Shown piece by piece: positions 14,060-32,000 of a stretch of DNA of 32,000 bases (the first letter of the stretch is position 1; the number at the start of each line of letters is the position of its first letter). Under the pieces are notes generated by a model. That model made no database searches. It was not told the DNA's origin and saw only the letters and a list, made by a program, of their open reading frames with translations. Made by a program: the position numbers and the translations under genes. This DNA is from Pyrodictium occultum (GTDB taxonomy: Archaea; Thermoproteota; Thermoprotei_A; Sulfolobales; Pyrodictiaceae): positions 810,001-842,000 of the forward strand of contig NZ_LNTB01000001.1 of assembly GCF_001462395.1 (NCBI RefSeq), given 5' to 3'.

Positions 14060-14995
14060 TCACCGCCTCTCCTCCAGCGCTGCTCCCTCGGCTATCTCGT
14101 CCAGGGCGAAGCTGTAGACGTTGTATAGCCCCCTCGGGGGCAGCCCCGCCTTGACAGCCTTCTCGTCCTCCTCGTCGACCACCTTCCAGTAGCCGCCGCA
14201 GCGCCTGCACCGGTAGAGCCGGAGCCAGGGCTTGTCGGGGAGCGGGCGGTAGAGCACCACGTCTCCGGGCCTCTCGGCGCCGCAGTAGGGGCAGCGGGCC
14301 CTGGGGAACACCCACTCCATGCCGCAGGCCTGGCAGATCAGGTACTGGCGGCGGCCCTCACCCCTCATGTAGCCGACGCGGGTGGCGGAGCCGCAGACCG
14401 GGCAGACGCCCTGCTGCCAGTACTCCCTGGCCCAGTCGAGCGCGGGCCCGGCGGCCAGGCGGAGGGCGCTGAGGAGGGGCTGGAGGAGCCAGAGGGCGAG
14501 GGCGCGCACCCGGTCCCGGTCGGCTGAGACCGCGCCCGCCCAGGCGTGTATGCTGTCCTCCCTCCCCTGGAGCAGCTCCTCGACCAGCTGGGATAGGCTG
14601 AGCACAGCCTTCTCCACGGGGTCCCGCAGCGAGGCGGCGGCGCCCTCCAGGCTGAACCCGGCCCCGGCCGCGGCGTCCATTATAGCCAGCATGGAGTCGC
14701 GGAGGAACGCCTCGCCCATCAGCGGGCGGGGGAGCCCGCCGAGCAGGGCTACGAGAGGCTTACGCTCCACGGCTATCCTCCGCGCCGCGGCCTGGACCTC
14801 CTCCACGAGGCCCGCTTCCCGGAGGCGGCGGAGCGCCTCCTCCTCTACCCGTGCCTGGGCCTCGTAGAGGGCCTCGAGGATGCGGTAGGTACGGCTATTC
14901 TCCGGCTCCTCCTGGGCCAGCCGGTCGAGCCACGCCCTTATCTCGGGAAGCCTATCCTTCAGGAGCCTAAGACCATGCCCCGACTCTACCATCAC
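14060..14995 (-). CDS. fdhE: Formate dehydrogenase accessory protein FdhE
   Basis: ORF track, 311 aa. It has the FdhE Cys pattern: CPVCGS...RRQYLICQACGMEW..RARCPYCG...YRCRRCGGYW (four CxxC pairs) after a helical N-terminal domain. It lies in the fdh cluster. Confidence 0.8.
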   Translation of the reverse strand: MMVESGHGLRLLKDRLPEIRAWLDRLAQEEPENSRTYRILEALYEAQARVEEEALRRLREAGLVEEVQAAARRIAVERKPLVALLGGLPRPLMGEAFLRDSMLAIMDAAAGAGFSLEGAAASLRDPVEKAVLSLSQLVEELLQGREDSIHAWAGAVSADRDRVRALALWLLQPLLSALRLAAGPALDWAREYWQQGVCPVCGSATRVGYMRGEGRRQYLICQACGMEWVFPRARCPYCGAERPGDVVLYRPLPDKPWLRLYRCRRCGGYWKVVDEEDEKAVKAGLPPRGLYNVYSFALDEIAEGAALEERR

Positions 14996-15122
14996 GCACA
15001 GCCTCTAGCTAGTGATACGCGGGGATGCTCCAGCGGGCGGAGCACCAAGCGGCTAAGAAGACACTGGGCAGTGAATAAAGCAAGCGGGAACAACGGGGAC
15101 ACCCCATGCGAGCCCCTCGGGG

Positions 15123-15941
15123 CTAGCAGAGGGGCGATAGGGGGCTAGCCTCTGCATAGGGCTCCAGCCCCAGGCGGCCTAGGGGCATAACGAGTGGCGC
15201 CCCCTGGATCCTCTCCGGGGCCGTGTAGACTGCCAGGCCCCGGCCATCCGGCCTGCGGAGCACGAGCGTGACGCCATGCTTCCTCGCGGCCGCGAGCCCG
15301 CTGAGCAGGGGGTGGTGGTTGGCCACGATGACCCGGACCCCCGCCCTCGCGAGAGCCTTGACCGCGTCCCCCGACACCCTGCCGGTCGAGACGGCCACCA
15401 GGGCTAGCCCCCTGAGCCTCCCGGCCGCGGCGAGCCTGGACAGCATCCCCGCCGCCTTCAACATGGCGCTGTGCCTGCTGACATCGCTTACGAGCAGCAG
15501 CCTCTCCGCGGAGCCCGAGCCGCGCTCCACCCCGTAGACGGCGACCGAGTGGAGCGCGTAGGGGCACCGGTGCTTCGGCACCATATGCACCAGGTCGCGG
15601 TAGGCCTCCTCCACCAGGCTCCACTCGACCCTGCGGTCCTCGGGTAGCCCGGCGGCGGCCGCCCTAGCGAGCCGGGCCCTCACGAGGAAGCTCATATCCC
15701 CGGTGCCCGTGACGGATAGGAGCTCTACGTGGTCCCCCAGCTCCGCCAGCTCCTCGCGCAGCGCCAGCCCCGCCACGGCGTCGGCGAGGTAGTTTGGGCT
15801 AGTGTATATCGAGCCTAGCCTCCTCCCGTCCAGCTCAACCACGTACTCGTAGTCGGCTGCCACGCGCAGCCCCGAGACCATGGTGGTGGCCAGGCTGCAC
15901 TCACGGGCAGCGTCCACGGCCCTGGCTACACGCTCCTCCAT
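15123..15941 (-). CDS. fdhD: FdhD-like formate dehydrogenase sulfurtransferase/accessory protein (divergent)
   Basis: ORF track, 272 aa, ATG with GGAGGG about 10 nt upstream. The C-terminal VAVSTGRVSGDAVKALARAGVRVIVANHHPLLSGLAAARKHGVTLV matches the FdhD pattern SGR.S.E...KA..AG........P...A...A...G.TL. Size and position fit FdhD. Confidence 0.65.
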   Translation of the reverse strand: MEERVARAVDAARECSLATTMVSGLRVAADYEYVVELDGRRLGSIYTSPNYLADAVAGLALREELAELGDHVELLSVTGTGDMSFLVRARLARAAAAGLPEDRRVEWSLVEEAYRDLVHMVPKHRCPYALHSVAVYGVERGSGSAERLLLVSDVSRHSAMLKAAGMLSRLAAAGRLRGLALVAVSTGRVSGDAVKALARAGVRVIVANHHPLLSGLAAARKHGVTLVLRRPDGRGLAVYTAPERIQGAPLVMPLGRLGLEPYAEASPLSPLC

Positions 15942-15994
15942 GCCTATTTGCCCTCCATGGCAGGGTTAAGGCGTGCATAACCGCTGGTACGGGG

Positions 15995-15999
15995 AAAAA
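15995..15999 (-). terminator. Oligo-T (T5 on the minus strand) 25-29 nt downstream of the cytochrome b gene
   Basis: The + strand reads ggggaaaaagg. Archaeal terminators are typically oligo-T tracts. This could attenuate transcription between the structural and accessory fdh genes. Confidence 0.25.
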
Positions 16000-16023
16000 G
16001 GTGTGTGGGCTGGTTGAGCGCCT

Positions 16024-16794
16024 CTAGGCCTCCTCGGCCTCTTTGGCGGCCTTCTCGTAGTATAGCGGGTGGTGGTGCTTCACGAAGTCCTCGGGAGCGG
16101 TGCCGGTGCGGAAGATAGCCCTCACCATGGGCCTGTGCTCCGGTATCCCTATGGCGAGGTACACGTGCACTATGAGCCCTGCTATGCCGAGCCATGCTGC
16201 CCACACGTGTATTGTGTGCGCCAGCGCCACTGTCTCCGGGCTGAAGCTGCTGCGGAACCACATTACCATGCCCGTGGCGAAGAGTATTGCGAAGCCTATG
16301 AACACGCTCAATATCCACAGCTTCTGGCCTAGATTATACTTGCCGAACCTGACGCTCCTCCTCCCGAGGTAGTAGGCTGCCAGGTTCCTCACTGCCTCGC
16401 CCAGCCCGCCCTCAGGCCAGATCTGCCACTTCCTTATCCTCGGCAGCTCGCCGAGAAGCCATACCAAGCCTATAGCCGCCATGCCTACTCCTGCCAGCCT
16501 GTGGATTACCCTGGCCACCTGCACCCCTAGGCTGTAGGCGCTGTAGCCCTGCTCAAACGGGGAGTAGCCGAGCGCCTTAGCCAGGTAGGAGGCCGGTGTG
16601 CCGAGCGCGTAGGCTAGCCAGCCGAAGAAGCTGTCCAGCGGGCTCGGCAGCTTGGCGGCCGATATTATTAGCCCCGTGAGTATCAGCGCCGCCGCGAAGT
16701 GTACCACATGCTTATGCGTCCATATCTCCAGCTCGCTGAAGAGCCTAATCTCGCGCGCCACCTGGAGCCACCTCCCAGGGCGTGGGTGGGTCAT
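16024..16794 (-). CDS. fdnI: Formate dehydrogenase gamma subunit-like membrane cytochrome b (FdnI / Ni-Fe hydrogenase b-type cytochrome family)
   Basis: ORF track, 256 aa. RLFSELEIWTHKHVVHFAAALILTGL, FGKYNLGQKLWILSVFIGFAILFATG and HTIHVWAAWLGIAGLIVHVYLAI give multi-TM helices with conserved His positions. It starts 21 nt after the beta gene. Confidence 0.75.
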   Translation of the reverse strand: MTHPRPGRWLQVAREIRLFSELEIWTHKHVVHFAAALILTGLIISAAKLPSPLDSFFGWLAYALGTPASYLAKALGYSPFEQGYSAYSLGVQVARVIHRLAGVGMAAIGLVWLLGELPRIRKWQIWPEGGLGEAVRNLAAYYLGRRSVRFGKYNLGQKLWILSVFIGFAILFATGMVMWFRSSFSPETVALAHTIHVWAAWLGIAGLIVHVYLAIGIPEHRPMVRAIFRTGTAPEDFVKHHHPLYYEKAAKEAEEA

Positions 16795-16815
16795 GGGAGA
16801 AAGGGGTGAGCCTGG

Positions 16816-17619
16816 CTACCCGCCCTTGGAGCCGCTGCGCTTCTCCATCCTCTTGGCCCGCCAGTAGACGGCGTGCGCCACCGCGCCTAGCGCGGCCAGC
16901 GCCGCCAGCCCGACGCCGACCTCGCGGCCTAGCTGCACGCCTGGCAGGCGGCCTCTCGGGTCGGCGGGGAGCCCCAATACCTCGTACCACTTCTTGCCCT
17001 GCTTGGCGCCGAGGCTCCTATACTTCCTGGTCACGTAGAGGTAGTGGGTGTGCCCCACGTAGTCGTTCACGTGGTCGCCGTAGACCTCGTAGCCTGCTGC
17101 ACGGTACTTCTCCACAAGCTCCCTCCACGGCCCGAACTCGAGCGCGTCGGTAGGGCAGGCCTCGACGCAGGCGGGCTGGAGCCCGTTCTGTATACGGTCT
17201 ATGCAGAGCGTGCACTTGTACACCTTGTTCGTCTTAGGGTCGTAGCGCGGCACATTGTAGGGGCAGGCCTCGATGCAGTAGCGGCAGCCGATGCACCTGT
17301 CGGAGCGTATCACCACGGCGCCCTCGGGGTGGACCTCGATGGCGTTGACCGGGCACGCCTTGGCGCAGGGCGCCTCGCTGCAGTGGAGGCACTGGTGCTT
17401 CTTGAACAGCCAGAAGGGCTCCCCGTCCTCGACGCCCTCCAGGAACTGCATTATCATCCAGGTGTTCGGGGTGAGGTCCGGCGGGTTGGTGTAGCCCTGG
17501 GGGTTGAAGCTGGTCTCCTCGGCTTTGAGCCCGTTCCACACCTTGCATGCTACCTGGCATGCCCTGCAGCCTATGCAGGTGTCCAGGTTGACTACTATCC
17601 CATACTCCGTCACGGGCAT
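16816..17619 (-). CDS. fdnH: Formate dehydrogenase beta subunit, 4x[4Fe-4S] ferredoxin-type with C-terminal TM anchor (FdnH-like)
   Basis: The track ORF is over-extended to 17832. The real start is ATG 17619 (MPVTEYGIVVNLDTCIGCRACQVACK), preceded by GGAGGTGAG. Cys clusters: CIGCRACQVAC, CLHCSEAPCAKACP, CIGCRYCIEACP and CTLCIDR...CVEACP. The C-terminal helix is VGVGLAALAALGAVAHAVYW. Confidence 0.9.
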   Translation of the reverse strand: MPVTEYGIVVNLDTCIGCRACQVACKVWNGLKAEETSFNPQGYTNPPDLTPNTWMIMQFLEGVEDGEPFWLFKKHQCLHCSEAPCAKACPVNAIEVHPEGAVVIRSDRCIGCRYCIEACPYNVPRYDPKTNKVYKCTLCIDRIQNGLQPACVEACPTDALEFGPWRELVEKYRAAGYEVYGDHVNDYVGHTHYLYVTRKYRSLGAKQGKKWYEVLGLPADPRGRLPGVQLGREVGVGLAALAALGAVAHAVYWRAKRMEKRSGSKGG

Positions 17620-17651
17620 CTCACCTCCCGGTCCGTTGGGCGGAAGAAGGG

Positions 17652-20600
17652 TTAGAGTATGGGCTGCACGCTGGGCTTCGACTGGTAGGTGTATTTCTCG
17701 GGGCTCGCCTTCCTCACCCATGCCAGGAACGCCTTGGTCTCCTGCATGGTTGTCACTATGTCGAGCAGCAGTATCGATATAGTGTTGGCTACGTCGAAGC
17801 TGTTGTGGGCGCCGCTCCAGCCCCAGTGCCACGGCACGTTTACCACGTAGACCTCCCTGCCCGCTATCCTCAGCTTCGGCATACGGTTGGTCACCAGGGC
17901 TCTCACGTATATCCTGTTGCGGTTGTTGCCCAGCTCGACAATATCGCCGCTCTTTATCCCGAGCTTCTCAGCCAGCTCGACCGGTATCTCCGCGAAGGGC
18001 TCCGGCACCATCTCGGCGAGATAGGGGACGTTCCTGGTCATTATGCCGGTGTGCCAGTGCTCCTCCAGCCTATTCTCGGTAACCACTACCACCTCGGACC
18101 CGCTGGGAGCGTACTTCTTCAGCTCCTCGTAGCTAGCCGTAATCGCCTTGTAGAGCTCTGGCATCTGCTCCGGCGGCTCTATGTAGAAGAGGTTCTCTAT
18201 CCTCCTCCACGCCAGCGCCGGGTACTCCGTCGCCAGCTCCAGGCTCGGGCTCTCGCCGGGCTCGAAGTGGAACGGGTAGTCGATGCTGTACGCCCAGACC
18301 TTGCCGTCGGGCCCTAGGGTGGCGTACCACTCGCCGTACCGGGATATTAGCTCCTTCACGCACTTCTTGTAGTTGTCGGGGCTGCCGTCGACGCAGGACT
18401 TGAACTCGTTGATGAACTTGTCGTGCACCCGGCGCCACTCCTTCCAGTCCTTGTATACTATGGTCTTGCCGTTGACGGTCTTGGATCCCTTGAAGTAGGG
18501 CTTGTAGAAGTTCGCCTTGCCGTAGTCGAGCACCAGCTCGGGGTCGTAGTAGAAGCTCTCGCACATCGGGCACTTGATTCCAAGCTCCTCCACGGTCTTT
18601 ACCTCGTAGCCGCCGCCGGGCTTCCAGAACACTATCCTGCCCACGGTCTTGCCGTAGCGTATCATAGCCTCCGGGTCGGCTGCGCCGGTGAATATGTCGG
18701 CCGTGGTCTTCTGGCTGCAGCGCTCGTTGAGGCATGTCCAGGCCCGCTTGTAGAACTTTCCTATCAGGAAGTTGTGGCCGGGTATGAACGCTGGTCTCAT
18801 CTCACCAGTCTTGGCGTCTACTATGTCGCCGGCCTCGCCCAGTATCTCGACCGTCTTGCCGTCCAGCTCGGGGCCTACAGCCCACCTGCCCGCCTCGAAG
18901 GTGAACCTGTCTTTGCGGCCGAAGGTCTTCTCTAGCGTGTAGAGGTTGTAGAGTATCCTCACGTTTCTGGGCCAGCTCCATCCCCAGTCCTTGTAGAGCC
19001 TCAGCGGCGCCTTGGCTCCAGGGTGTGTGAGGGTGCCGCTGTCCAGCAGCCCGTCGGGCTGGCCGGGCGACCGCGGTGCCGAGACCCTCCTCGCGGCCAG
19101 CACCCTATTGTGGGCCCAGTCGTACTGGCCATAGTAGAGGTCGACGGCCGCGTCTATCTCCTTGTAGACGAGTACTGGGTCTACCTCCTGGTAGTCGCTC
19201 CACGGGTACCTGTCACTGCTGTAGTTCATGTAGGGGGCTATCCTCCGCCTGTACAGCTCCACAAGAGTATCGGCCTCGGGATGCTTCACCAGCACGCGCT
19301 CCACGTGCTTGCCGTACTCCTCGCTGGGCAGCTTCGCCAGCCCAGCCCTCCTCATGTGCTCCCAGAGCTTGTACATTATCCACAGGTCCGGCTTGGCGTC
19401 GCCGGGCGGCGAGACCACGCGGTGCTGCCACTGTATCCAGCGGTTGCTGTTGGTTATGCTGCCCTCCTTCTCGTACTGGAAGGCTGCGGGGAGGAAGACG
19501 TCGGCGAACCAGGCTGTCTCCGTGAGGAAGATGTCCGAGACGACTAGGAACTTGAGCGCGGAGAGCGCTGCCATAGTCATCTTGGAGTCTGCGTCGCTTA
19601 TCGCTATGTTCTCGCCGAACAGCCACATAGCCTCAATCTTGCCGCCCAGCTTCCTAGTCCTCGGGTCATCGGGCAATAGTACGCCCATCCACCAGTTGTT
19701 CTCGGTGTAGCCCTTGTTGAAGGGCAGGTCGCTGATAACCACGCTGTCCTCGTCCCAGGGCCTGTCCTCGGGGTCGGTGCCGACGAAGATCCCCATGGAC
19801 AGCTCGTAGCGGCGCCAGTTCATGAACCACCATGACCAGAGCAGCGCCGTGCTGTTGACCGTGAGCCTGCAGTTGTCGCCCTTCTCGTCGCAGCCGCTGC
19901 ACTTCAGCCCCAGGGCCTTGCAGGTCTTCATGCTGGGGCGCCAGTTGAAGGCGTCGGGGAAGCCCTTGAGCTTCCACTCCTGGTAGGCGCGCACCTGCTT
20001 ACTGTTGGTTGGTATCTTCACGTAGCCTGGGAATATGTGGCTCAGTATGCAGAGGTCGGTGGTGCCCTGCACGTTGCTGTGGCCGCGGTAGGGGTTGAGG
20101 CCGCCGCCGGGGAAGCCCAGGTTGCCGAGGACCAGCTGGACCAGCGCGGCCATTCGGGTGTTCTGGGTCCCCACGTGGTGCTGGGTGAGCCCCATAGCCC
20201 ACTCTATGGAGGCGAACCTCTTGAAGTTTGTTGTTACACCGCTGTTCTCGACAAAGAGCTTCGCTATCTGTCTAAGCTTCTCGACCGGTATACCGGTTAT
20301 CCTCGAGACCTCCTCGGCGGTGAACCTCTTTGCTATATCCTTTATCTCCGAGATCTCCTCCAGGTCTATGTTGAACCTCTTGGCGTACTCCCTGAACGTG
20401 GGGAGCTGGTCTACGGGCGGGTTGCGCTCGTAGAACGCGTAGTGGAGAAGGTAGTACATCACGGGTATGTCGGTCCCGGGCCTGTGGAAGGCGAACACCT
20501 GGGCCTTGGAGGCTGTGCGGCCGTACTTCGGGTCGACGACTACCAGGGTGAGGGTGCCGCGCTTAATACCCTTCATCACGTGCCTCATGGAGACCGGGTG

Positions 20601-21332
20601 GGCCTCGGCGGGGTTGCCGCCTAGGATGAGGTAGACACTGATGTACTGGGTGTCGGGGAAGCTCTGAGTCTGGGCCCCGAAGCCCACGGTGCCCGCTAGG
20701 CCGGCCACGGTGGTGGAGTGGCAGCGGCGCGCATCATGGTCTATATTGTTGCTGCCGAGGAGCATTGAGATCTTCCTTATCAGGTATGCCTCCTCGTTCA
20801 GCATCTTAGCCCCGGCCATTATCATGAGCGGGTACTGGTTGCCCAGTCGGAAGTAGCAGCCCTTCCTGCTGCCGCACAGCTTCCCGTCGTAGGGGTGGTA
20901 AGAGCGCACCGCGCCAGCATTCTCCCCGAGTATCTCCTTCATCCTCCTCGCTATGTAGGCGAACGCCTCCTCCCAGGTCACCGGCTTCCAGACGGGCTTG
21001 TACTTCTCCAGCACCCTCCGGAGCTCGTTGGAGTCCCTGGCGGCGAGTATCTCCTCGGGCCGGGGCTTGGGGTTTACACGTATCAGCGGCTTCCTCGCCC
21101 GCAGCCCGTTGTAGGCGCCGAAGAGCTGGATGGAGGCCTTGCCCTTGGCGCAGAGCTTGCCCTCGTTAAGCGGGTTATCGGGGTCGCCCTCGAGGTAGAC
21201 TACCTTGTCGCCCCTCTTGTAGAATATGATGCCGCAGCCCACGCTACAGTAGGTGCAGACACCCCGGACCTCAACGGTCTCCTCGAGGTTCTTGCCCCCT
21301 ATCTCGCCGAGACGGTAGCGCTTCGGGGCCAT
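17652..21332 (-). CDS. fdnG: Formate dehydrogenase-N-type catalytic alpha subunit (bis-MGD molybdo/tungstopterin oxidoreductase), Cys-type, with large insertions
   Basis: ORF track, 1226 aa. It is collinear with E. coli FdnG as I recall it. VCTYCSVGCG is the N-terminal [4Fe-4S] site. DARRCHSTTVAGL aligns with ARVUHGPTVASL, so Cys replaces Sec. Other matches: GGNPAEAHPV, VVDPKYGRTAS, GLTQHHVGTQNTRMAALVQLVLGNLGFPGGGLNPYRGHSNVQGTTD. Confidence 0.95.
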   Translation of the reverse strand: MAPKRYRLGEIGGKNLEETVEVRGVCTYCSVGCGIIFYKRGDKVVYLEGDPDNPLNEGKLCAKGKASIQLFGAYNGLRARKPLIRVNPKPRPEEILAARDSNELRRVLEKYKPVWKPVTWEEAFAYIARRMKEILGENAGAVRSYHPYDGKLCGSRKGCYFRLGNQYPLMIMAGAKMLNEEAYLIRKISMLLGSNNIDHDARRCHSTTVAGLAGTVGFGAQTQSFPDTQYISVYLILGGNPAEAHPVSMRHVMKGIKRGTLTLVVVDPKYGRTASKAQVFAFHRPGTDIPVMYYLLHYAFYERNPPVDQLPTFREYAKRFNIDLEEISEIKDIAKRFTAEEVSRITGIPVEKLRQIAKLFVENSGVTTNFKRFASIEWAMGLTQHHVGTQNTRMAALVQLVLGNLGFPGGGLNPYRGHSNVQGTTDLCILSHIFPGYVKIPTNSKQVRAYQEWKLKGFPDAFNWRPSMKTCKALGLKCSGCDEKGDNCRLTVNSTALLWSWWFMNWRRYELSMGIFVGTDPEDRPWDEDSVVISDLPFNKGYTENNWWMGVLLPDDPRTRKLGGKIEAMWLFGENIAISDADSKMTMAALSALKFLVVSDIFLTETAWFADVFLPAAFQYEKEGSITNSNRWIQWQHRVVSPPGDAKPDLWIMYKLWEHMRRAGLAKLPSEEYGKHVERVLVKHPEADTLVELYRRRIAPYMNYSSDRYPWSDYQEVDPVLVYKEIDAAVDLYYGQYDWAHNRVLAARRVSAPRSPGQPDGLLDSGTLTHPGAKAPLRLYKDWGWSWPRNVRILYNLYTLEKTFGRKDRFTFEAGRWAVGPELDGKTVEILGEAGDIVDAKTGEMRPAFIPGHNFLIGKFYKRAWTCLNERCSQKTTADIFTGAADPEAMIRYGKTVGRIVFWKPGGGYEVKTVEELGIKCPMCESFYYDPELVLDYGKANFYKPYFKGSKTVNGKTIVYKDWKEWRRVHDKFINEFKSCVDGSPDNYKKCVKELISRYGEWYATLGPDGKVWAYSIDYPFHFEPGESPSLELATEYPALAWRRIENLFYIEPPEQMPELYKAITASYEELKKYAPSGSEVVVVTENRLEEHWHTGIMTRNVPYLAEMVPEPFAEIPVELAEKLGIKSGDIVELGNNRNRIYVRALVTNRMPKLRIAGREVYVVNVPWHWGWSGAHNSFDVANTISILLLDIVTTMQETKAFLAWVRKASPEKYTYQSKPSVQPIL

Positions 21333-23691: not shown

Positions 23692-25140
23692 CTAGCCCCT
23701 GGGGGCCCCCAGGGCCGCCGAGCCCTCCCCGAGGACGTAGTGGTAGCGGTAGAGCAGCCTCGTAGGGTAGACCTCGTACTCGAAGAGGGATTTGCGCAGC
23801 TCGAGGAGGCCGTAGCCGGCCAGCCTCCTACAAGCCTTCAGCACCGCGCCGGGCGGTATCGAGAGCCTGGCCGCTATCTCGTGCACCGTTACCCCGGGCT
23901 CCCGGGCGGCCAGGCGGGCTATCTCCTCGTAGAGCGGGTCGACGGCCAGTAGCGCCGCCGGCAGGTCCTCGGGGTATACGTAGAGCCGCCCCCGGGCCTC
24001 CGGCACCGAGGCCACGGCGCCCCGCAGCTCGAGCAGGGTGAGGCGGCGGCACAGCCTACGCCAGCCCGCCCCCAGCCTGGCCGCCAGCTCCTCAAGGCTC
24101 ATAGGCCCCGAGTCCCTCAGCAGCTCGACTATCCTCGCATCCATCTCGCGCGGCTTGTAGAGCCTGGCCAGGGGCCTCAGCACCAGCAGTCGGATCCTGC
24201 GGGGCGCCAGGCAGGCCAGCGAGGCGGCGAGCAACGCCAGGTAGGCGGGGAATGCCACGAGGGCTGCCGCGGCCAGGGCTCCGGGCAGCCCGCCTCCCGC
24301 GGCAGCCGCCACTCTCCCGAAAGGCCTGAGGAGGGCCAGGGCCGCGTTGTGCAGCACAGCCTTCACACGGTGCCTTGCCGGAGGGGGCTCCGGGGTGACG
24401 GCCTGCATCTCCTCCACCACTATGCCTGCTAGGAGCCCTGCCATCTCCGCCCCGTTGCCCTGGCTCACCACCGCCTTAACCGGGTTGAACGCGGCAGTGA
24501 CAACGACTCCGCGGCCGTACCTGTTGGCCAGTATGGCTGGGTGTCCCTCCTGGAAGGCGGCGAGCACACGGGCTCCCTGGGGCTCGAGGTGCATGGCGCC
24601 GTAGGTGTCGTTGTAGGCGTATACCCGCCCCCGGTAGACTATGTCGTAGAGGGGCGTGTCGGCGCTACTGGATGCTACACCGGCTACCCTGGCCCCAGCC
24701 ATGGACTCTAGAAGAGGGTGCCAGTGCTGCACGAAGGTGTTCATGCCTATGAAGAGCAGGTGGCCTCCCCTAACATACTCCGCCAGCGCCTCTATCTCAG
24801 CTGGTGTAAGCCGCCCGCCGTAGGTGAAGAGCCTGTTAAGGTCTGGTATGAGCACTGCGTCGTAGCGCCAGAGGAACGCGGGATCGCTGAGCCTTGCGCG
24901 CTCCGCGCCGGCGGAGGGGTAGCTCTTGCTCAGGTACAGCACTCTCACATCCACTTGGAGCCCGGCGGCGGCAGCGCTGTCGGCTATGCTGCGGGCCCAT
25001 AGTATGTCGTCAAAATCGCTGGCCACCACTAGCATGGAGCGGGGGCGGCCCGGGCCCCCGGCAGCGGAGGCGGCGGAGACGCTGCAGGCTAGGATAGCGG
25101 CTGCCAGCACCACTAGAACCGGGGCAGCGCTCCTAGGCAA
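23692..25140 (-). CDS. Membrane-spanning protein: signal peptide + extracytoplasmic domain + TM segment + two cytoplasmic winged-helix (ArsR/MarR-like) domains
   Basis: ORF track, 482 aa, TTG start. The N-terminus is MPRSAAPVLVVLAAAILACSVSAASAA. The hydrophobic block is GALAAAALVAFPAYLALLAASLACLA. The wHTH-like segments are RIVELLRDSGPMSLEELAARLGAGWRRLCRRLTLLELRG and VTVHEIAARLSIPPGAVLKACRRLAGYGLLE. It is a paralogue of 27170..28459. Confidence 0.7.
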   Translation of the reverse strand: MPRSAAPVLVVLAAAILACSVSAASAAGGPGRPRSMLVVASDFDDILWARSIADSAAAAGLQVDVRVLYLSKSYPSAGAERARLSDPAFLWRYDAVLIPDLNRLFTYGGRLTPAEIEALAEYVRGGHLLFIGMNTFVQHWHPLLESMAGARVAGVASSSADTPLYDIVYRGRVYAYNDTYGAMHLEPQGARVLAAFQEGHPAILANRYGRGVVVTAAFNPVKAVVSQGNGAEMAGLLAGIVVEEMQAVTPEPPPARHRVKAVLHNAALALLRPFGRVAAAAGGGLPGALAAAALVAFPAYLALLAASLACLAPRRIRLLVLRPLARLYKPREMDARIVELLRDSGPMSLEELAARLGAGWRRLCRRLTLLELRGAVASVPEARGRLYVYPEDLPAALLAVDPLYEEIARLAAREPGVTVHEIAARLSIPPGAVLKACRRLAGYGLLELRKSLFEYEVYPTRLLYRYHYVLGEGSAALGAPRG

Positions 25141-25188
25141 ATACTACACCCTTCGCCTGAGCCTGGAGAGCCTCTAGGCGGCCTCCGG

Positions 25189-25196
25189 CTTTAAAG
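25189..25196 (-). promoter_or_regulatory. TATA-box candidate (ctttaaag) for the 482-aa gene
   Basis: The palindromic TTTAAA at 25190-25195 lies about 50 nt upstream of TTG 25140, in the 79-nt spacer after the GT2 gene. Confidence 0.35.
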
Positions 25197-25219
25197 CTGC
25201 CAGCACGGCTCTCCAACAA

Positions 25220-26677
25220 TTATGCAGCGCCCCATGTAATCCTCTCGCGGAGCAGCGCTCTTATCATGGCATCAGTCTTAGCCACCGCCAGCAGCGGGAT
25301 GTAGAGGAGCGTGTATATGAACGCGTAGGGCGCTATCCTCACGGCACTCCCTGCCCCGTACTCGGCCCCATACGCTACTATAATGCTGAGAGACCCCATT
25401 ATGACCGTGGAAGCCAGCGCGGCCAGATAGGCTGCCAGGAAGACCGGCAGGGGGAGGGCCAGCACCTCTAGCCCGAGCAGCCCGTAGACAGCCACTATAG
25501 CTGCCAGCGTTATGTAGCCGGCTACATGGAGCAGGGGGAGGAGATACTCGACGCCCAGAAGGTAGACAGCCAGCAGCCGCCCATAGAGGTAGGAGGCGTG
25601 CCCAGCCCTCCGGAGGCCCAGCAGGTTTGCATGCTTGAGGAGAACCTGGAGGCCCCCAGCATACCAGCGTATCCGCTGCCTATAGAGGCCCCGGAGGCTC
25701 GAGGGCGTGATGGTGTAAGCCACGGCGCTGTGCTCGTAGCCAGTCCTCAGCCCCCTCTTCCACACCATTACGGTGAGGTCGAAGTCCTCCGCTAGAGTGT
25801 CCTCCGGTATGCCACGCTCAGCCAGGGGCTTCAATACTATGGAGCGGAAGGCGCTGAACGCGCCCGAGAGTATCAGCGTGGCCCTGCTGACCGCGTCCTC
25901 CATGAAGCGGCCCAGCTCAAAGCCGAGGAAGTACTCTATGCGCTGCATCCAGTAGAGGAGGCCCCCATGCCCGGCCGGGATGAGGCGGCCGCACACGGCC
26001 CCCAGCCCGTCCTCGTAGAGGAGCCTGGACACGAGCCTCCTGACCGCGTCCCTCTCCGGCACCGTGTCAGCGTCAAGGACGATTATGACGTCTCCAGTGG
26101 CTCTCCGTATACCCGTGGTTAGCGCCTCGGCCTTCCCCAGGTTGACCTCGTGCCTCACAGCCCTTATGAACGGGTACCTCCTAGCATAGCTGCTCACTAT
26201 AGACCAGGTGCCGTCCGTGGAGCCGTCGTCAACGATTATCACCTCCATCAGCTCCCTCGGGTAGTCCTGATGGAGGAGGGCGCGCAGGACACGGCCGATA
26301 ACCTGCTCGCCATTGAACACCGGGATCTCTACCGAGACCCTCGCCGGTATCCCCGGGTGCAGCCGCCCCCCGGGATGAGCCTTGTAGACCCTGGCCAGCA
26401 CGAGCTTACTGAAGACCCTCGACGCGTAGAAGGCTGCCGTCACGCCCCCGATGAGGCTGTAGAGGAGGACGACCAAGGGGAGCCCCGGGCTAGCCGCGCC
26501 CCGGCCGAGGTGGAGGGCCTCCACCAGCCGGTCCATGATCACGCGGGCTAGGAGGAGCCCTAGGGCGAACCAGAGTACGCCCCCGGCTATCCCCACGAGC
26601 CTGGTCTGCCACCTGGCTGCACTCCCCAGCCTGTAGCCCTTCCCCGCGGTCATTGAGCCCTCTACGCTACCGGTCAC
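25220..26677 (-). CDS. Processive family-2 glycosyltransferase (PgaC/NodC/cellulose-synthase-like beta-glycan synthase), multi-TM
   Basis: ORF track, 485 aa (GTG 26677; ATG alternative at 26653). Motifs in canonical order: VIIVDDGSTDGT, VLDADT, SGAFSAFR, TLAEDFDLT and YRQRIRWYAGG (QxxRW). There are two N-terminal and several C-terminal TM helices. Confidence 0.9.
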   Translation of the reverse strand: MTGSVEGSMTAGKGYRLGSAARWQTRLVGIAGGVLWFALGLLLARVIMDRLVEALHLGRGAASPGLPLVVLLYSLIGGVTAAFYASRVFSKLVLARVYKAHPGGRLHPGIPARVSVEIPVFNGEQVIGRVLRALLHQDYPRELMEVIIVDDGSTDGTWSIVSSYARRYPFIRAVRHEVNLGKAEALTTGIRRATGDVIIVLDADTVPERDAVRRLVSRLLYEDGLGAVCGRLIPAGHGGLLYWMQRIEYFLGFELGRFMEDAVSRATLILSGAFSAFRSIVLKPLAERGIPEDTLAEDFDLTVMVWKRGLRTGYEHSAVAYTITPSSLRGLYRQRIRWYAGGLQVLLKHANLLGLRRAGHASYLYGRLLAVYLLGVEYLLPLLHVAGYITLAAIVAVYGLLGLEVLALPLPVFLAAYLAALASTVIMGSLSIIVAYGAEYGAGSAVRIAPYAFIYTLLYIPLLAVAKTDAMIRALLRERITWGAA

Positions 26678-27189
26678 AGCCTCCCCCCTCTCCTAATGAC
26701 CTCTGCCGCCTCAAGCGAGAGGAGTAGCGCCACGCTGCCGAGGAGGAGCAGGGGCCCGGCAATACTGTGCATCGATGCCGCAGCCTCCACGCCAAGCTTC
26801 TCAGCGGCAGCGGCTACGAGGAGTATGCGCAGTATGTTGGCGAGGTATATGACGAGGAAGCCTGCCGTGAGCCAGTAGAGCCTCCTCCAGAGCCTCATGG
26901 GGAGGAGCAGCGAGGCGGCTAGGAATATCGTGTAGGATACCAGGCCGCTGCAATGCCAGTCTATCCTAAGCCCGACCACCTCCCCGCCGCGGATGATGTA
27001 GATAGTCCTCCCTACCCTTACATGGCTCACCCCGGCCAGGTCCAGTATGGCGCTCAGGCTGGCCGCCTCCACCTCCAACGGCCTGTCGCCGGCCAGGCCC
27101 GCCGCAGCCCAGACCAGGACCGCGGCCGCTAGGGCGGCAGCCGCCCGGCCGGCCAGCCTGCCCAGCAGCCTAGGCATAGGCCTCGCCAC
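26674..27189 (-). CDS. Minimal exosortase/archaeosortase-family protein (171 aa)
   Basis: ORF track, 171 aa (GTG 27189; ATG at 27177). It has the ordered Cys/Arg/His hallmarks of the family, set in TM helices: RIDWHCSGLVSYTIFL, VIYLANILRILLV and ASMHSIAGPLLLLG. Its TGA 26676-26674 overlaps the GT2 GTG 26677. Its start overlaps the upstream gene's stop (27172-27170). Confidence 0.6.
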   Translation of the reverse strand: MARPMPRLLGRLAGRAAAALAAAVLVWAAAGLAGDRPLEVEAASLSAILDLAGVSHVRVGRTIYIIRGGEVVGLRIDWHCSGLVSYTIFLAASLLLPMRLWRRLYWLTAGFLVIYLANILRILLVAAAAEKLGVEAAASMHSIAGPLLLLGSVALLLSLEAAEVIRRGGRL

Positions 27190-28459
27190 CGCGGGCTAGA
27201 AGCCTGGGTACCAGCCTAAGGGCCCAGTCGGAGAGCCGGTAGCCGTAGCCGGCCTCCTCCACGACGTTATGCACGCGTAGAACATCGATATGATGCTTAA
27301 CGGTGGACTTGCTCATGCCCAGAGCGCGGGCGAGCTGAGATATACTGGCAGGCGACTGGAGCAGCGCCTCCGCTATCCGGCGCCGCGGCTCAGCCTCGAG
27401 GAGGAATGCGAGCACGGCTTCAACGGCTCTCCCCCTCCTATAGTATATCTGCGTGTTCAGCACCCTGCGGGTCTCGAGGAGCCCCGCGTCCACGAGCAGG
27501 GTTAGGTGCCAGAGCGCCGGCGTCCTCTTCAGCCCCAGCTCCCTCACAACCATGCCGAGCGTCACGTAGCCCCGCCTCTCAGCCAGCTCCAGGATCTTAG
27601 CCCTCACCGGGTGCTTGGCGGCGTCCGCCCCGCGTATTCGGTGGGCCAGTACCGCTACAGCCGCCCAGGGCCTCATGAGGTGCCGGAGCATCCTCTCTCC
27701 ACGGCTGCTGCTGGAGCTAGACTGGGCGGCGGCAGCGCTGAGGGCGGCGGCGACAGCTGCGGCGGCCAGAGCCGTGCCCAGGCCCCCGGCCAGGTAGCTG
27801 TGGAGGGCCCGGACCAGCCTGGTGAACCCCTTCTCCCCGTCGATGGTGGGCCAGACCGGGTTGAAGAAGAGGAGCACCAGCCTCCCACGGCCATAATGCA
27901 TCGCAACTATCGCCGGGTCGCCGTCGCTGAACCGCGCCAGCACCCTCCAGCCCGCCTGAGGCAGGACGCGGAAACGGCGGTACTTCCACGTCTTGTACAC
28001 TATGCTCGCCGGAGCACCGTGGAGCTGGAGGCCGAGGGAAGCGTGGATAGCGTGAACACCGCTCCCCTCATCCTTAGCCACCAACCCTACTCTTGCGAGC
28101 ACGCCCGGCTCGTAGACGCTGATAGCCCGCAGCGTGTTGTAGCCGAGCACCACGGTGGCGCCCTTCTCCGCGAGCTCTAGCAGCCTCTCCCCGAGGCCCC
28201 GGGGCCAGCCGCCGCAGCTGGGGGCGTTGTAGTCGAGCACGTACACGTAGCCGGGGACCGTGTCCGGCAGCACGCACTTCGCGGGCGTGAACCCGGCCCC
28301 AAGCTCCTCGAGGAAGAGTAGATCGCCCCGGTCGCTCGCCAGGAATACTGCCCCCTGCCCCGCCAGGGCCGGCGCGGCTGCAGCGGCCGCAAGCGCGGCG
28401 GCCAGCGCCACCGCCACCGGCTGGAGCCTTGCCCCCACCCTGCCCATAGCCGTGTACAC
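27170..28459 (-). CDS. Membrane-spanning protein: signal peptide + extracytoplasmic domain + TM segment + two cytoplasmic ArsR-type winged-helix domains
   Basis: ORF track, 429 aa (GTG 28459; ATG at 28447 gives MGRVGARLQPVAVALAAALAAAAAAPALAG). The TM segment is GLGTALAAAAVAAALSAAAA. The wHTH segments are HPVRAKILELAERRGYVTLGMVVRELGLKRTPALWHLTLLVDAGLLE and RRRIAEALLQSPASISQLARALGMSKSTVKHHIDVLRVHNVVE. Confidence 0.7.
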   Translation of the reverse strand: MYTAMGRVGARLQPVAVALAAALAAAAAAPALAGQGAVFLASDRGDLLFLEELGAGFTPAKCVLPDTVPGYVYVLDYNAPSCGGWPRGLGERLLELAEKGATVVLGYNTLRAISVYEPGVLARVGLVAKDEGSGVHAIHASLGLQLHGAPASIVYKTWKYRRFRVLPQAGWRVLARFSDGDPAIVAMHYGRGRLVLLFFNPVWPTIDGEKGFTRLVRALHSYLAGGLGTALAAAAVAAALSAAAAQSSSSSSRGERMLRHLMRPWAAVAVLAHRIRGADAAKHPVRAKILELAERRGYVTLGMVVRELGLKRTPALWHLTLLVDAGLLETRRVLNTQIYYRRGRAVEAVLAFLLEAEPRRRIAEALLQSPASISQLARALGMSKSTVKHHIDVLRVHNVVEEAGYGYRLSDWALRLVPRLLARGGEAYA

Positions 28460-29837: not shown

Positions 29838-30021
29838 ATGTTATTCCTTAGTGAAGGATGCCCCGGGATTCCATGCGCCTCCCCTGCGGGCTTGTGGAGC
29901 TGTCTCGAAGCTGATTGTTCGAGAAACCGTCTAGCCTACATATAATGGTGTGCCCCAGCTTTCCTGGCGGATTAGGAGTTGCATAGATTAGAGTGTGCAG
30001 AGTACTAACATTACAGTTGTG

Positions 30022-30447
30022 ATGGTTGTGATGGAGGTAATATTCGTGGAGGAGCACCCGCTCCGGGCCCGGATACTCCAGCTGCTCAGGGAGCATGGCG
30101 CGGTATACTATAGCGAGCTCCTGCGCAGCCTTGAGGCCTCGCGGGCTACGCTCAGCTGGCACCTCTACGTGCTGCTGCGGGAGGGGCGTGTCGGGGCCAT
30201 CCGGTACCGTAGGTATACCATCTACTACCTCCGGGGCCGCGAGCTCGAGGCCGTCAGGAGTATAGCTGGGAGGGATAGGCTGTTCTGCAGCGTTCTACGC
30301 GACCTGGCGGCGGGCGCCCGGCCGGAGGAGGTGGCGGCTCGCTACGGGATAAGCGTCAGGGGGCTAGAGGGCCTGCGGGAGCTCGCCAGGAGGCTCCGGG
30401 GCAGGCTCGATGAGGTCTGCGGCGAGGAGCAGAATGTAGGCGAGTGA
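30022..30447 (+). CDS. Small winged-helix (ArsR-like) transcriptional regulator
   Basis: Track ORF starts at 29995; the likely starts are ATG 30022 or 30031 (MEVIFVEEHPLRARILQLL...). HPLRARILQLLREHGAVYYSELLRSLEASRATLSWHLYVLLREGRV resembles the first wHTH of the 429-aa membrane protein. Confidence 0.7.
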   Translation: MVVMEVIFVEEHPLRARILQLLREHGAVYYSELLRSLEASRATLSWHLYVLLREGRVGAIRYRRYTIYYLRGRELEAVRSIAGRDRLFCSVLRDLAAGARPEEVAARYGISVRGLEGLRELARRLRGRLDEVCGEEQNVGE

Positions 30448-30747: not shown

Positions 30748-30765
30748 TACTATACCCCTTATATT
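30748..30765 (+). promoter_or_regulatory. TATA-like elements (gtactatacc / cttatatt) upstream of the secreted-protein gene
   Basis: They lie about 55-70 nt upstream of GTG 30820. A GGAGGTGG Shine-Dalgarno-like sequence at 30805-30812 lies 8 nt before the start. Confidence 0.4.
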
Positions 30766-30819
30766 GGCTGAAAGCCTCCCAGAGGCCCCGGCGGCCATGG
30801 AGTTCGGAGGTGGCTGGCG

Positions 30820-31536
30820 GTGAGGCTGCAGGGCAGGCGCAGGGCAACCCTACTAGTCATCCTGGCGGCGGTGGCAGCCCTGTCGGTAGCTAACGCGAGC
30901 GTTTTCGCCTACCGGACACTCTATGGCAACGTCAAGATAGCTGATATAACGCAGGGCCAGGACCAGACCAGCATAACGCAGTATGGCCTGGCATGCGTAG
31001 GCTTCTACACGAGCGACTCTATAGAGGATCGGGGTGTGCTGCCCACCGCGGGCACGAACTACAACGCTGCGCCGATAGGGACCACGAGCACCGGCGGCTG
31101 GTACGGCGTGAATGTAGTCCCCGGAGACGTTGCCTGCAGCTGGACAAACACGAGCACCAATAACACCAACACGCTCTACAAGACAGCGACAGTGTATATA
31201 AACGTCACTAACGGTGACTGGTACTTCAAGGACATACTCGGCTTCGGCTACCCCAACATAACGAGCAGCCCAAGCCCCGCCTACGTGACAGTGCGTGTCG
31301 AGGGAGCCCTCAGCAACACCAACATAACTGAAGCTCTACTGAAGATATACGATGCTAGTAGCGGGAACCTCAGAGGGCAGATAGACCTGAAGAACAACGG
31401 CGACTACATCAACTTCACGCTGATGCCCGGCCAGGGAGTCCAGATAGACCTGGATCTCTCCGCCACCGGTGCTGTATCACTCGACAACTTCACAGTGAGG
31501 TTCTACATATCGCCGAGCAGCGAGCAGCCTAGGTAG
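30820..31536 (+). CDS. Secreted, sequon-rich beta-type protein; candidate TasA/AbpA-like fibre subunit with SipW-type signal peptide
   Basis: ORF track, 238 aa, GTG start. The N-terminus MRLQGRRRATLLVILAAVAALSVANASVFAYRTLYGNV has a basic n-region, an h-region and an A.A..FAY segment resembling SipW-dependent signals. It has at least 8 N-x-S/T sequons (NAS, NTS, NNT, NVT, NIT x2, NFT x2) and no C-terminal anchor. It is followed by a signal peptidase gene. Confidence 0.6.
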   Translation: MRLQGRRRATLLVILAAVAALSVANASVFAYRTLYGNVKIADITQGQDQTSITQYGLACVGFYTSDSIEDRGVLPTAGTNYNAAPIGTTSTGGWYGVNVVPGDVACSWTNTSTNNTNTLYKTATVYINVTNGDWYFKDILGFGYPNITSSPSPAYVTVRVEGALSNTNITEALLKIYDASSGNLRGQIDLKNNGDYINFTLMPGQGVQIDLDLSATGAVSLDNFTVRFYISPSSEQPR

Positions 31537-31575
31537 CCGGCACCCGGTGGCCGGGGTTAGCTCCCTCTCTTTTTC
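31537..31575 (+). terminator. Imperfect GC hairpin followed by T5 downstream of the secreted-protein gene
   Basis: ccggcacccggtggccgg is an imperfect palindrome. It is followed by ctccctctctttttcc, with T5 at 31570-31574, 34-38 nt after the stop. Confidence 0.3.
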
Positions 31576-31675
31576 CACGGTCTTTGCCGCCTCTTGCATC
31601 TGCTTCACCGCGCGGCTCCCAGAGGGTCTCGGGGGCGCCGGCCCCAGCAGGGGTGCTTGATGGTGCAGAGACGCC

Positions 31676-32000
31676 ATGCCGGGGCTTGCCAGGGCTCTGG
31701 GCTACCTAGCGGCTGGTGTGCTGCTAGTCCTCCTCGCGGGTAAGATGCTCCGCCTACCCGTGGCCCTCATGATTGTCTACGGCACCTCCATGGAGCCTAC
31801 GTTTGAGCCCCTGGACCTGGTTCTCGGGGTGGAGCCTTGGCTGGCTGGGGGCGTGGAGAAGGGCGATGTAGTGGTCTGGTGCCTTCCGGGCGACTTCTGG
31901 AGGAGCAGCTGCGTCGTCCACCGCGTGGTGGACCTGGTGAACACGAGCAGGGGGGTGCTGGTGGTCACTAAGGGCGACGCGTTGGATGTCAGCGACCCGC
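31676..32000 (+). CDS. Signal peptidase I, Sec11/SipW (S26B) type, 5' part (continues off the right edge)
   Basis: Not in the track (open-ended). My translation: MPGLARALGYLAAGVLLVLLAGKMLRLPVALMIVYGTSMEPTFEPLDLVLGV...GDVVVW...VVHRVVDL...VVTKGDALDVSDP. The boxes are present: GTSMEP (Ser nucleophile), GDVVV, HRV (His-type, as in archaeal/eukaryal and SipW enzymes) and TKGD. An in-frame TGA at 31657-31659 fixes the start at ATG 31676. Confidence 0.85.
   Translation, partial: MPGLARALGYLAAGVLLVLLAGKMLRLPVALMIVYGTSMEPTFEPLDLVLGVEPWLAGGVEKGDVVVWCLPGDFWRSSCVVHRVVDLVNTSRGVLVVTKGDALDVSDP

Follow-up and report, generated by a model that had tools for sequence, protein, structure and literature searches.

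The 32,000-nt stretch of the Pyrodictium occultum PL-19 genome analysed here (NZ_LNTB01000001.1, positions 810,001-842,000 of the forward strand, assembly GCF_001462395.1; hereafter the window) closes with the first gene and the beginning of the second gene of a four-gene cassette which, on present evidence, probably builds a thin, strand-swapped cell-surface fibre of the TasA superfamily and is equipped with its own Sec11/SipW-type signal peptidase. The pilin-like gene is termed g1 and the genes downstream of it g2, g3 and g4. On the predicted model, the g1 product is likely a fibre subunit closest in fold to AbpA that polymerises by donor-strand complementation. All results are computational, and the genes past the end of the window (full-length g2, g3 and g4) were read via a 98%-identical P. 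occultum-like contig, L006. An earlier reading of the window, made from its letters alone (the sequence-only reading), had proposed a fibre module resembling TasA and the archaeal bundling pili (ABP) with a Sec11/SipW-type peptidase. The core of that proposal is supported by the predicted AbpA-like fold, the linkage to the peptidase and the literature, while several of its side claims fell away. The features on which the argument turns are as follows.

30820..31536, plus strand: g1, probable AbpA-like (TasA-superfamily) fibre-subunit precursor of 238 amino acids (aa); open reading frame with a GTG start, fold match to AbpA.
30820..30897, plus strand: predicted Sec signal peptide, aa 1-26 (MRLQGRRRA, h-region, ANA), from the hydrophobic segment and the conserved small residues at -3/-1.
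30898..30939, plus strand: predicted N-terminal donor strand, aa 27-40, SVFAYRTLYGNVKI, from its conservation, its sharing between g1 and g4 and its unpacked position in the model.
31570..31574, plus strand: T5 tract, likely archaeal oligo-T attenuator or terminator, 34 nt past the g1 stop codon.
31676..32000, plus strand: g2, first 108 of 395 aa, comprising the first transmembrane (TM) helix, TM1, and a Sec11/SipW-type signal peptidase I domain, from TIGR02228 and motifs.

The g1 product (WP_058370724.1 / CF15_04495, annotated as a hypothetical protein) was modelled by AlphaFold2 from 27 homologues with a pLDDT of 88 and a pTM of 0.79, and consists of a signal-peptide helix, an unstructured segment at residues 24-47, one short helix and an 11-strand beta-sandwich. 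Comparison of this model with the PDB by Foldseek returned a single match at E <= 1e-3, which was AbpA of Pyrobaculum calidifontis (7UEG_A; E 1.2e-5, probability 1.0), with a TM-score of 0.58 on the target and 0.46 on the query and a root-mean-square deviation of 8 Å. Further donor-strand filaments followed with weaker scores, among them a cannula-like tube (Hyper2, 9bab), CanA (9hdi) and the pilins Fim, Csu and CFA/I. The fold comparison advised by the sequence-only reading, which had named an unrelated fold as a refutation, was therefore significant for AbpA, though not for TasA itself. Two cysteines, C59 and C106, are invariant across the family alignment. The family is small: at 90% identity it forms nine clusters among 5.8 billion proteins, and at 50% identity it has 29 representatives among 1.84 billion. 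All its named members are hyperthermophilic archaea: Pyrodictium, Stetteria, Staphylothermus hellenicus, Desulfurococcus amylolyticus, Acidilobaceae metagenome-assembled genomes (MAGs) and Thermococcus chitonophagus. This spread was taken from protein clusters; a genome scan with a nine-sequence alignment gave one locus.

The open reading frame of 238 aa and its quoted N-terminus agree exactly with what had been read from the sequence (30820-31536, plus strand), as do the absence of a membrane anchor, residues 8-31 being the sole hydrophobic segment and the C-terminus carrying no anchor, and the count of at least eight N-glycosylation sequons. Eight N-x-S/T sequons are present, at residues 25, 110, 114, 128, 146, 168, 198 and 223, against 3.4 +/- 1.6 expected from composition-preserving shuffles (P = 0.009). 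Given that the orthologues carry only 2-8, this high density is a trait of P. occultum and not of the family. At 57%, the GC content of g1 is below that of the window (66%) and of the neighbouring g2 fragment (65.5%); the difference may stem from the composition of its Asn/Thr/Tyr/Ile-rich sequence, or may point to high expression or foreign origin.

The predicted leader of g1 begins with an n-region containing four arginines, continues with an h-region of 15 residues and ends in small residues that are conserved at -3/-1 (ANA↓S). The pattern V/A-x-A/G at -3/-1 is conserved in seven of seven g1 proteins and in most g4 proteins. Given that the -3/-1 rule holds at Ala26 and is broken four residues further on in Stetteria and Staphylothermus, which have Ile at -1, cleavage is predicted after Ala26 (ANA↓SVF) rather than at FA(Y). 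This family comparison displaces the site from the A.A..(F/Y)A(Y/F) junction that had been proposed previously. An N-A-(S/T) sequon (N25-A26-S27, 30892-30900) spans the predicted site and is kept in most g1 homologues, not in g4; it may be a recognition element, or its glycosylation may compete with cleavage. The suggestion that the leader would be of the SipW-dependent type found no support in a scan of NCBIfam with full-length g1 and the first 63 residues of g1 and g4 at E <= 10, which returned no signal-peptide model, with the limit that TIGR04088 was not confirmed as part of the NCBIfam release used.

Directly after the predicted cleavage site, the segment SVFAYRTLYGNVKI is among the best conserved of the g1 family (consensus TVFAYRxLxGxVxV). 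It alternates L-G-V-I along one face, as an amphipathic strand does, and in the AlphaFold2 monomer model it is a coil with a pLDDT of 58-71 that lies outside the packed fold. A conserved strand outside the monomer fold is the signature expected of a donor strand, and strand donation is predicted from this conservation and this model. The same segment links g1 to g4: the two profiles are related only over the first ~60 residues (hhalign probability 83%, E 8.6e-6), where both have a basic n-region, an h-region and a small-x-small site followed by (S/T/G/A)(V/L)F-x-x-(R/K)-x-L-x-G-x-V-x-(V/I). The junctions in P. occultum read ...SVANA↓SVFAYRTLYGNVKI in g1 and ...LVADA↓TLFAVRSLEGSVHA in g4. The leader and N-terminal strand common to both proteins imply that g4 could plug into the groove of g1.

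The order g1-g2-g3-g4 is kept in seven loci of five genera with unrelated flanks, namely those of P. occultum (L006), Stetteria (L001), S. hellenicus (L003), a Pyrodictium MAG (L007), a further MAG (L009), D. amylolyticus (L012) and T. chitonophagus (L013). The protein lengths are 214-239 aa for g1, 361-403 aa for g2, 185-240 aa for g3 and 512-762 aa for g4; g2 and g3 overlap by 8-17 nt, and g3 and g4 are separated by 15-36 nt. Orthologues unlinked to a peptidase had been named beforehand as an outcome that would count against a fibre module. Instead, g2 or a standalone signal peptidase (SPase) gene is present in eight of nine homologous loci with differing flanks, and the SPase model is matched in seven of these eight peptidase-linked loci, the Thermococcus g2 giving no match. 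Extension beyond the window, which had also been advised, brought the full peptidase and the downstream genes into view as g2, g3 and g4 of L006. One Acidilobaceae MAG locus (L014) has two tandem pilin paralogues and no g4. At a second locus from an Acidilobaceae MAG (L015, 6001-6660), an orphan g1 paralogue, P0029, is surrounded by unrelated housekeeping genes and lacks a peptidase gene, g3 or g4 in its vicinity. The same lineage has the L014 cassette, and P0029 presumably serves in trans as a second subunit.

The product of g3 is a polytopic membrane protein with four to five TM helices that gave no family match in model scans. It is intact in L006 (226 aa) and present as two fragments (87 + 144 aa; CF15_04505 and CF15_04510) in the PL-19 draft genome, which reflects either a frameshift error of the draft or an impaired cassette in the type strain. 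The product of g4 is a large, variable secreted glycoprotein with 13-19 sequons; a DUF2341 domain, present in its two longest versions, is the sole family match. Its sequence changes much more quickly than that of g1, the Pyrodictium MAG protein being 24% identical for g4 compared with 53% for g1.

The g2 gene starts at the ATG at 31676, after a spacer of 139 nt that had been put at about 140 nt, and runs past the end of the window to encode a protein of 395 aa (WP_058370725.1). The GTSMEP, HRV and TKGD boxes reported earlier are found at 31781-31798, 31919-31927 and 31967-31978. The 108-residue fragment in the window matches the archaeal signal peptidase I model TIGR02228 with an E of 4.7e-12, and six of seven g2 proteins match it with E-values of 1e-10 to 1e-14; Stetteria g2, at 54.0 bits, exceeds the curated cutoff of this model, and the other matching orthologues score 41.6-48.2. 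Residues S38 (GTSMEP), H82 (HRV), D101 (KGD) and D107, the last at the window edge, are invariant in the six crenarchaeal-type orthologues. The catalytic pair is Ser/His, not Ser/Lys, accompanied by conserved Asp residues, in a spacing that we take to resemble S44/H83/D103/D109 of yeast Sec11.

In the full-length protein, TM1 and the peptidase domain are followed by another two TM helices and by a C-terminal tandem beta-sandwich of ~200 aa, a layout whose predicted topology places both soluble parts outside the cell. A model from a two-sequence alignment has a pLDDT below 50 in the peptidase domain and of 65-92 in the C-terminal domain. Foldseek matches of the latter are generic tandem Ig/FN3 folds (IL-12 p40, NCAM, RbmA and the EcpB chaperone) with TM-scores below 0.35, which permit no specific conclusion. 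Profile comparisons of g2 with g1 and of g2 with g4 gave no relationship, and DUF5305, a known SPase accessory domain, was not found in g2 or g3.

The fused peptidase seems particular to the cassette. The 360-400-aa architecture is seen only beside g1 homologues, and a search of 5.8 billion proteins with full-length g2 returned two clusters, both of cassette-type length and one of them P. occultum g2 itself; with the 108-aa window fragment as query there was one match, of unrelated length. In T. chitonophagus (6653-7738 of L013), g2 keeps the TM helices and the C-terminal beta-sandwich, its peptidase motifs are unrecognisable and TIGR02228 is not matched. In L014 (6705-7727), the g2 homologue likewise keeps the TM and beta-sandwich parts, the peptidase region is truncated and motif-less, and a standalone SPase I of 150 aa (86.7 bits) overlaps the end of g3, where g4 usually sits. 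Given this decay of the peptidase domain in two loci and the standalone enzyme in one of them, peptidase activity and the remainder of g2 are separable, and the cassette tends to keep both. The indirect evidence, drawn from sequence, for g2 as a dedicated peptidase is fairly strong.

The conserved gene order, the peptidase motifs, the predicted fold and the N-terminal motif common to g1 and g4 lead us to propose a filament that would be built as follows. Sec would export pre-g1, whose leader would keep it in the membrane until g2, a membrane protein with an outward-facing Ser/His/Asp signal-peptidase domain, cut that leader after Ala26. The freed amphipathic strand, SVFAYRTLYGNVKI, would then enter the open jelly-roll groove of a neighbouring subunit, giving a head-to-tail polymer. 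The g4 protein would be processed by the same enzyme and would stand at one filament end as a nucleator, cap or adhesin, like TapA, AbpB or Saci_0405. Translationally coupled to g2, g3 would probably contribute, with the non-catalytic part of g2, a membrane platform or anchor. It is suggested only tentatively, as a proposal that may well prove wrong, that the two TM helices and extracellular tandem Ig/FN3-like beta-sandwich of g2 form with co-translated g3 a platform on which the fibre is both assembled and anchored. In the same doubtful proposal, this platform would be an archaeal functional counterpart of the chaperone/usher, with leader cleavage and strand hand-over at one site. In its favour, this part of g2 persists in T. 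chitonophagus and at the Acidilobaceae locus, both with a decayed fused peptidase and the latter with a separate SPase I.

The oligo-T after g1 would, in the proposed scheme, yield far more subunit than accessory proteins. Each of the six loci compared has a T4-T6 run 9-40 nt past the g1 stop codon, although their GC content varies widely. The sequence-only reading had paired this tract with a hairpin; the tract stands, being conserved, and the hairpin does not, since shuffling the sequence at 31531-31566 yields folds of equal stability (z = -0.12, with 93 of 200 shuffles at least as stable). Hairpin-free termination at oligo-T is established for the archaeal RNA polymerase, and a scheme of high subunit and low accessory expression is a reasonable one, with the T-tract as its single basis.

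Several observations weigh against a fibre with its own peptidase. The assignment depends on one predicted structure with a moderate TM-score, and TasA is not within the top 50 Foldseek matches of g1. At the level of sequence, no link of g1 to AbpA, TasA or Peptidase_M73 was found with Pfam, NCBIfam, phmmer and a 27-sequence profile against PDB sequences. Residues 120-230 of g1 also resemble the pre-peptidase C-terminal (PPC) jelly-roll repeats of large proteins that are not filaments. Full-length P. occultum g2 reaches 46.6 bits against the TIGR02228 cutoff of 51.85. Given the annotation of g3 as two fragments, the cassette may be impaired in the PL-19 type strain. Finally, earlier electron microscopy of P. 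occultum detected no ABP-like fibres (PMC12518558).

Some of these points could be explained if g1 were a monomeric or surface-bound secreted glycoprotein with a PPC- or CBM-like jelly-roll, for example a binding module, and g2-g4 formed a surface complex that is not a fibre. The resemblance to PPC repeats, the many Foldseek matches below AbpA that are generic beta-sandwich binding domains (CPE C-domain, CUB, ColH CBD) and the micrographs in which such fibres have not been revealed are all in keeping with this. However, it is improbable for two reasons: first, the sole significant structural match of g1 is a filament subunit. Second, its conservation is greatest in an N-terminal amphipathic strand that the fold leaves out and that recurs in g4, which would be difficult to account for in a monomeric binder and is typical of donor-strand systems. 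As an observation in its own right, residues ~120-230 (31177-31509) weakly and repeatedly match four giant multi-domain proteins (E 1e-4 to 1e-9). In the three of these four that were scanned against Pfam the repeats are PPC domains, a hint that pilin cores and PPC modules are remotely related.

It is also possible to read g2 as the housekeeping signal peptidase I, its adjacency to g1 being without meaning, given that its NCBI annotation is merely 'S26 family signal peptidase' and that a second enzyme is not demonstrated. This is quite unlikely, since the fusion architecture occurs only beside g1 homologues and the fused domains score 41-54 bits against TIGR02228 compared with 86.7 for the ordinary standalone enzyme. 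Furthermore, T. chitonophagus and the organism with the Acidilobaceae locus must still export proteins although their g2 peptidase domain has decayed, and P. abyssi has no AbpA-type homologue by HMMER or Foldseek yet processes its secreted proteins.

A third reading makes g1 a cannula-type subunit (CanA/CanX-like) of the wide Pyrodictium tubes, given that P. occultum makes cannulae and that Foldseek lists the Hyper2 tube 9bab (E 2.9e-3) and CanA 9hdi (E 2.5e-2). We consider it very improbable: AbpA scores two to three orders of magnitude better (E 1.2e-5), cannula loci have no dedicated peptidases whereas the g1 gene is peptidase-linked, CanX homologues are restricted to Pyrodictiaceae whereas the g1 family reaches Staphylothermus, Desulfurococcus, Acidilobaceae and a Thermococcus, and five separate CanA-like genes lie elsewhere in P. 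occultum.

The weakest reading ties g1 to the PgaC-like GT2 and ArtF-like archaeosortase genes 3.6-5.6 kb away in the window, as a member of a matrix island or as an archaeosortase substrate, and can hardly be credited, since those genes lie on the opposite strand with a phosphoglycolate phosphatase gene between them and g1, are absent near the cassette in every other genome examined, and neither g1 (ending ...FYISPSSEQPR) nor g4 (ending ...RIVFSAR) has a C-terminal hydrophobic segment or an archaeosortase-type TM/basic sorting signal. With it falls the biofilm island, formed of the GT2 synthase and nearby regulators, that the sequence-only reading had placed at the right end of the window.

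These neighbours form an apparent operon on the minus strand (28459-25220) that encodes a 429-aa regulator, a 171-aa ArtF-like protein of the exosortase/archaeosortase family and a 485-aa GT2 protein resembling PgaC and XrtG-associated enzymes. The 429-aa protein has a signal peptide, a ~200-aa ectodomain, one TM helix and two cytoplasmic ArsR-type winged helix-turn-helix (wHTH) domains, and a 482-aa protein with the same signal-ectodomain-TM-2xwHTH layout follows the operon. Together the genes at 23692-28459 resemble a module of membrane-tethered regulator, sortase and polysaccharide synthase. Directly after g4 in L006 (5945-6736, minus strand) lies a gene for a 263-aa secreted protein whose C-terminal end, ...PSPLPHAGAGTALLAAALAAAAAAAAAARRRAGG, combines a motif, a TM helix and a basic tail. 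This end resembles an archaeosortase-type sorting signal, and the ArtF-like enzyme encoded in the window could act on the protein.

Three further features lie upstream of g1, the last two read from the sequence and put forward as candidates.

29995..30447, plus strand: gene for an ArsR/HTH_20-type winged-helix regulator of 150 aa (Pfam HTH_20, E 1.2e-8).
30759..30766, plus strand: candidate TATA box TTATATTG, ~55 nt before the g1 start codon.
30806..30812, plus strand: putative Shine-Dalgarno-like GGAGGTG, 7 nt before the GTG start.

The candidate TATA box is the sole AT-rich patch within its GC-rich stretch (window GC 66%). An HTH_20 gene also lies upstream of g1 in L006, and an ArsR-type HTH gene also lies 5' of the pilin genes in the Acidilobaceae locus L014; at the remaining cassette loci the upstream regulator gene is not conserved. 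It is possible, though weakly supported, that the winged-helix protein regulates the cassette. The remainder of the window encodes ordinary metabolism, with homocitrate/isopropylmalate-type genes and a molybdopterin oxidoreductase operon (14060-21332, minus strand). This operon has an unusually long catalytic subunit of 1226 aa and also encodes a 4Fe-4S subunit, a cytochrome b-type membrane subunit and FdhD-/FdhE-like proteins.

The identification of the subunit is not new: WP_058370724.1 has been named "a putative ABP" in one sentence (Sleutel et al. 2025, PMC12518558). Where the protein is cited in the literature the cassette is not discussed, and a literature search found no paper mentioning the g1 orthologues looked for. 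What is added here is the four-gene cassette, the fusion of peptidase and beta-sandwich and their separability, the leader and donor strand common to g1 and g4, and the revised cleavage site. The proposed fibre is a believable, though largely anticipated, example of a class already known. The cassette is a compact conserved unit in hyperthermophiles that can be cultivated (P. occultum, S. hellenicus, D. amylolyticus and T. chitonophagus), and its peptidase is fused to, and in some lineages separable from, a conserved membrane/beta-sandwich module. It thus offers a convenient system in which to ask whether an assembly machine is needed for such fibres. If the proposal is true, P. occultum gains a second fibre type besides its cannulae.

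Among known systems, the pili of P. calidifontis (AbpA/AbpB, 7UEG) provide the best and only significant structural match of g1. AbpA, a TasA homologue (Wang et al. 2022, PMC9245690), has in common with what is predicted for g1 a Sec leader cut by SPase I, a core of the jelly-roll type and an N-terminal segment proposed as donor strand. Its locus, like the cassette, also encodes polytopic membrane proteins, a nearby wHTH regulator and, downstream, a secreted beta-rich protein of larger size, which is AbpB in Pyrobaculum and g4 in the cassette. Nevertheless, there is no sequence homology between AbpA and g1 detectable by phmmer or profile, and AbpA has been reported only from Thermoproteales and Thermofilales (PMC9245690), whereas the g1 family is found in Desulfurococcales/Acidilobales and one Thermococcus. 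Furthermore, no peptidase gene was found near the Pyrobaculum ABP operon (Wang et al. 2022, PMC9245690), which contradicts the statement in the sequence-only reading that an own peptidase is a hallmark of those pili; in the cassette, the peptidase is the most constant partner.

The tapA-sipW-tasA operon of Bacillus subtilis follows the same logic, with a jelly-roll major subunit, a minor protein with a matching N-terminal strand (TapA there, g4 here) and a dedicated signal peptidase of the endoplasmic reticulum/archaeal type that processes both subunits, as is proposed for the cassette. It differs in that TasA is absent from the top 50 fold matches of g1, g1 has no Peptidase_M73 or SipW-type signal-peptide match, the gene order is different, the cassette peptidase is fused to two TM helices and a tandem beta-sandwich, and there is an additional gene, g3. 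The haloarchaeal Tafi system comprises the pilin TafA/E, the peptidase TafD, the DUF5305 protein TafG, the tip protein TafC, the anchor TafF and the regulator TafB (PMC12337348), and shares with the cassette a pilin, a dedicated SPase I, a membrane accessory, a variable tip protein and, in some cases, an HTH regulator (PMC12337348). In contrast to the cassette, most haloarchaeal pilins use Tat; the cassette has no DUF5305 match or sequence similarity to Tafi, and its accessory module is fused to the peptidase.

A blueprint of pilin, dedicated peptidase, accessory and tip protein has also been described for AbpX-like loci (bioRxiv 10.64898/2026.01.04.697558). AbpX of Pyrodictium abyssi comes from the same genus as P. 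occultum g1, has a signal peptidase gene immediately downstream, belongs to the donor-strand fibres of the TasA superfamily and has a cysteine pair, as g1 does, with a disulfide predicted in AbpX (bioRxiv 10.64898/2026.01.04.697558). The AbpX family is characterised by an isoelectric point (pI) of ~4, ~15% acidic residues, an aromatic residue at mature position 2, an acidic residue at position 4 and a ten-TM peptidase partner (bioRxiv 10.64898/2026.01.04.697558). Membership of g1 in this family was rejected, given its pI of 5.05, its 7.1% Asp/Glu, its predicted mature N-terminus S-V-F-A and the three TM helices, not ten, of g2.

The threads of Sulfolobus acidocaldarius (Saci_0406/0405) are heavily N-glycosylated donor-strand filaments (PMC9715654). 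Their structure, 7PNB, is not within the top 50 fold matches of g1, and no peptidase is described in the thread locus, processing being ascribed to the general signal peptidase I (PMC9715654). Saci_0405 is of pilin size and has no Sec leader, unlike g4, which has 512-762 aa and a Sec leader. Nevertheless, Saci_0405 has a donor strand but no acceptor groove and is proposed to act as a cap or nucleator (PMC9715654), which is the role proposed here for g4.

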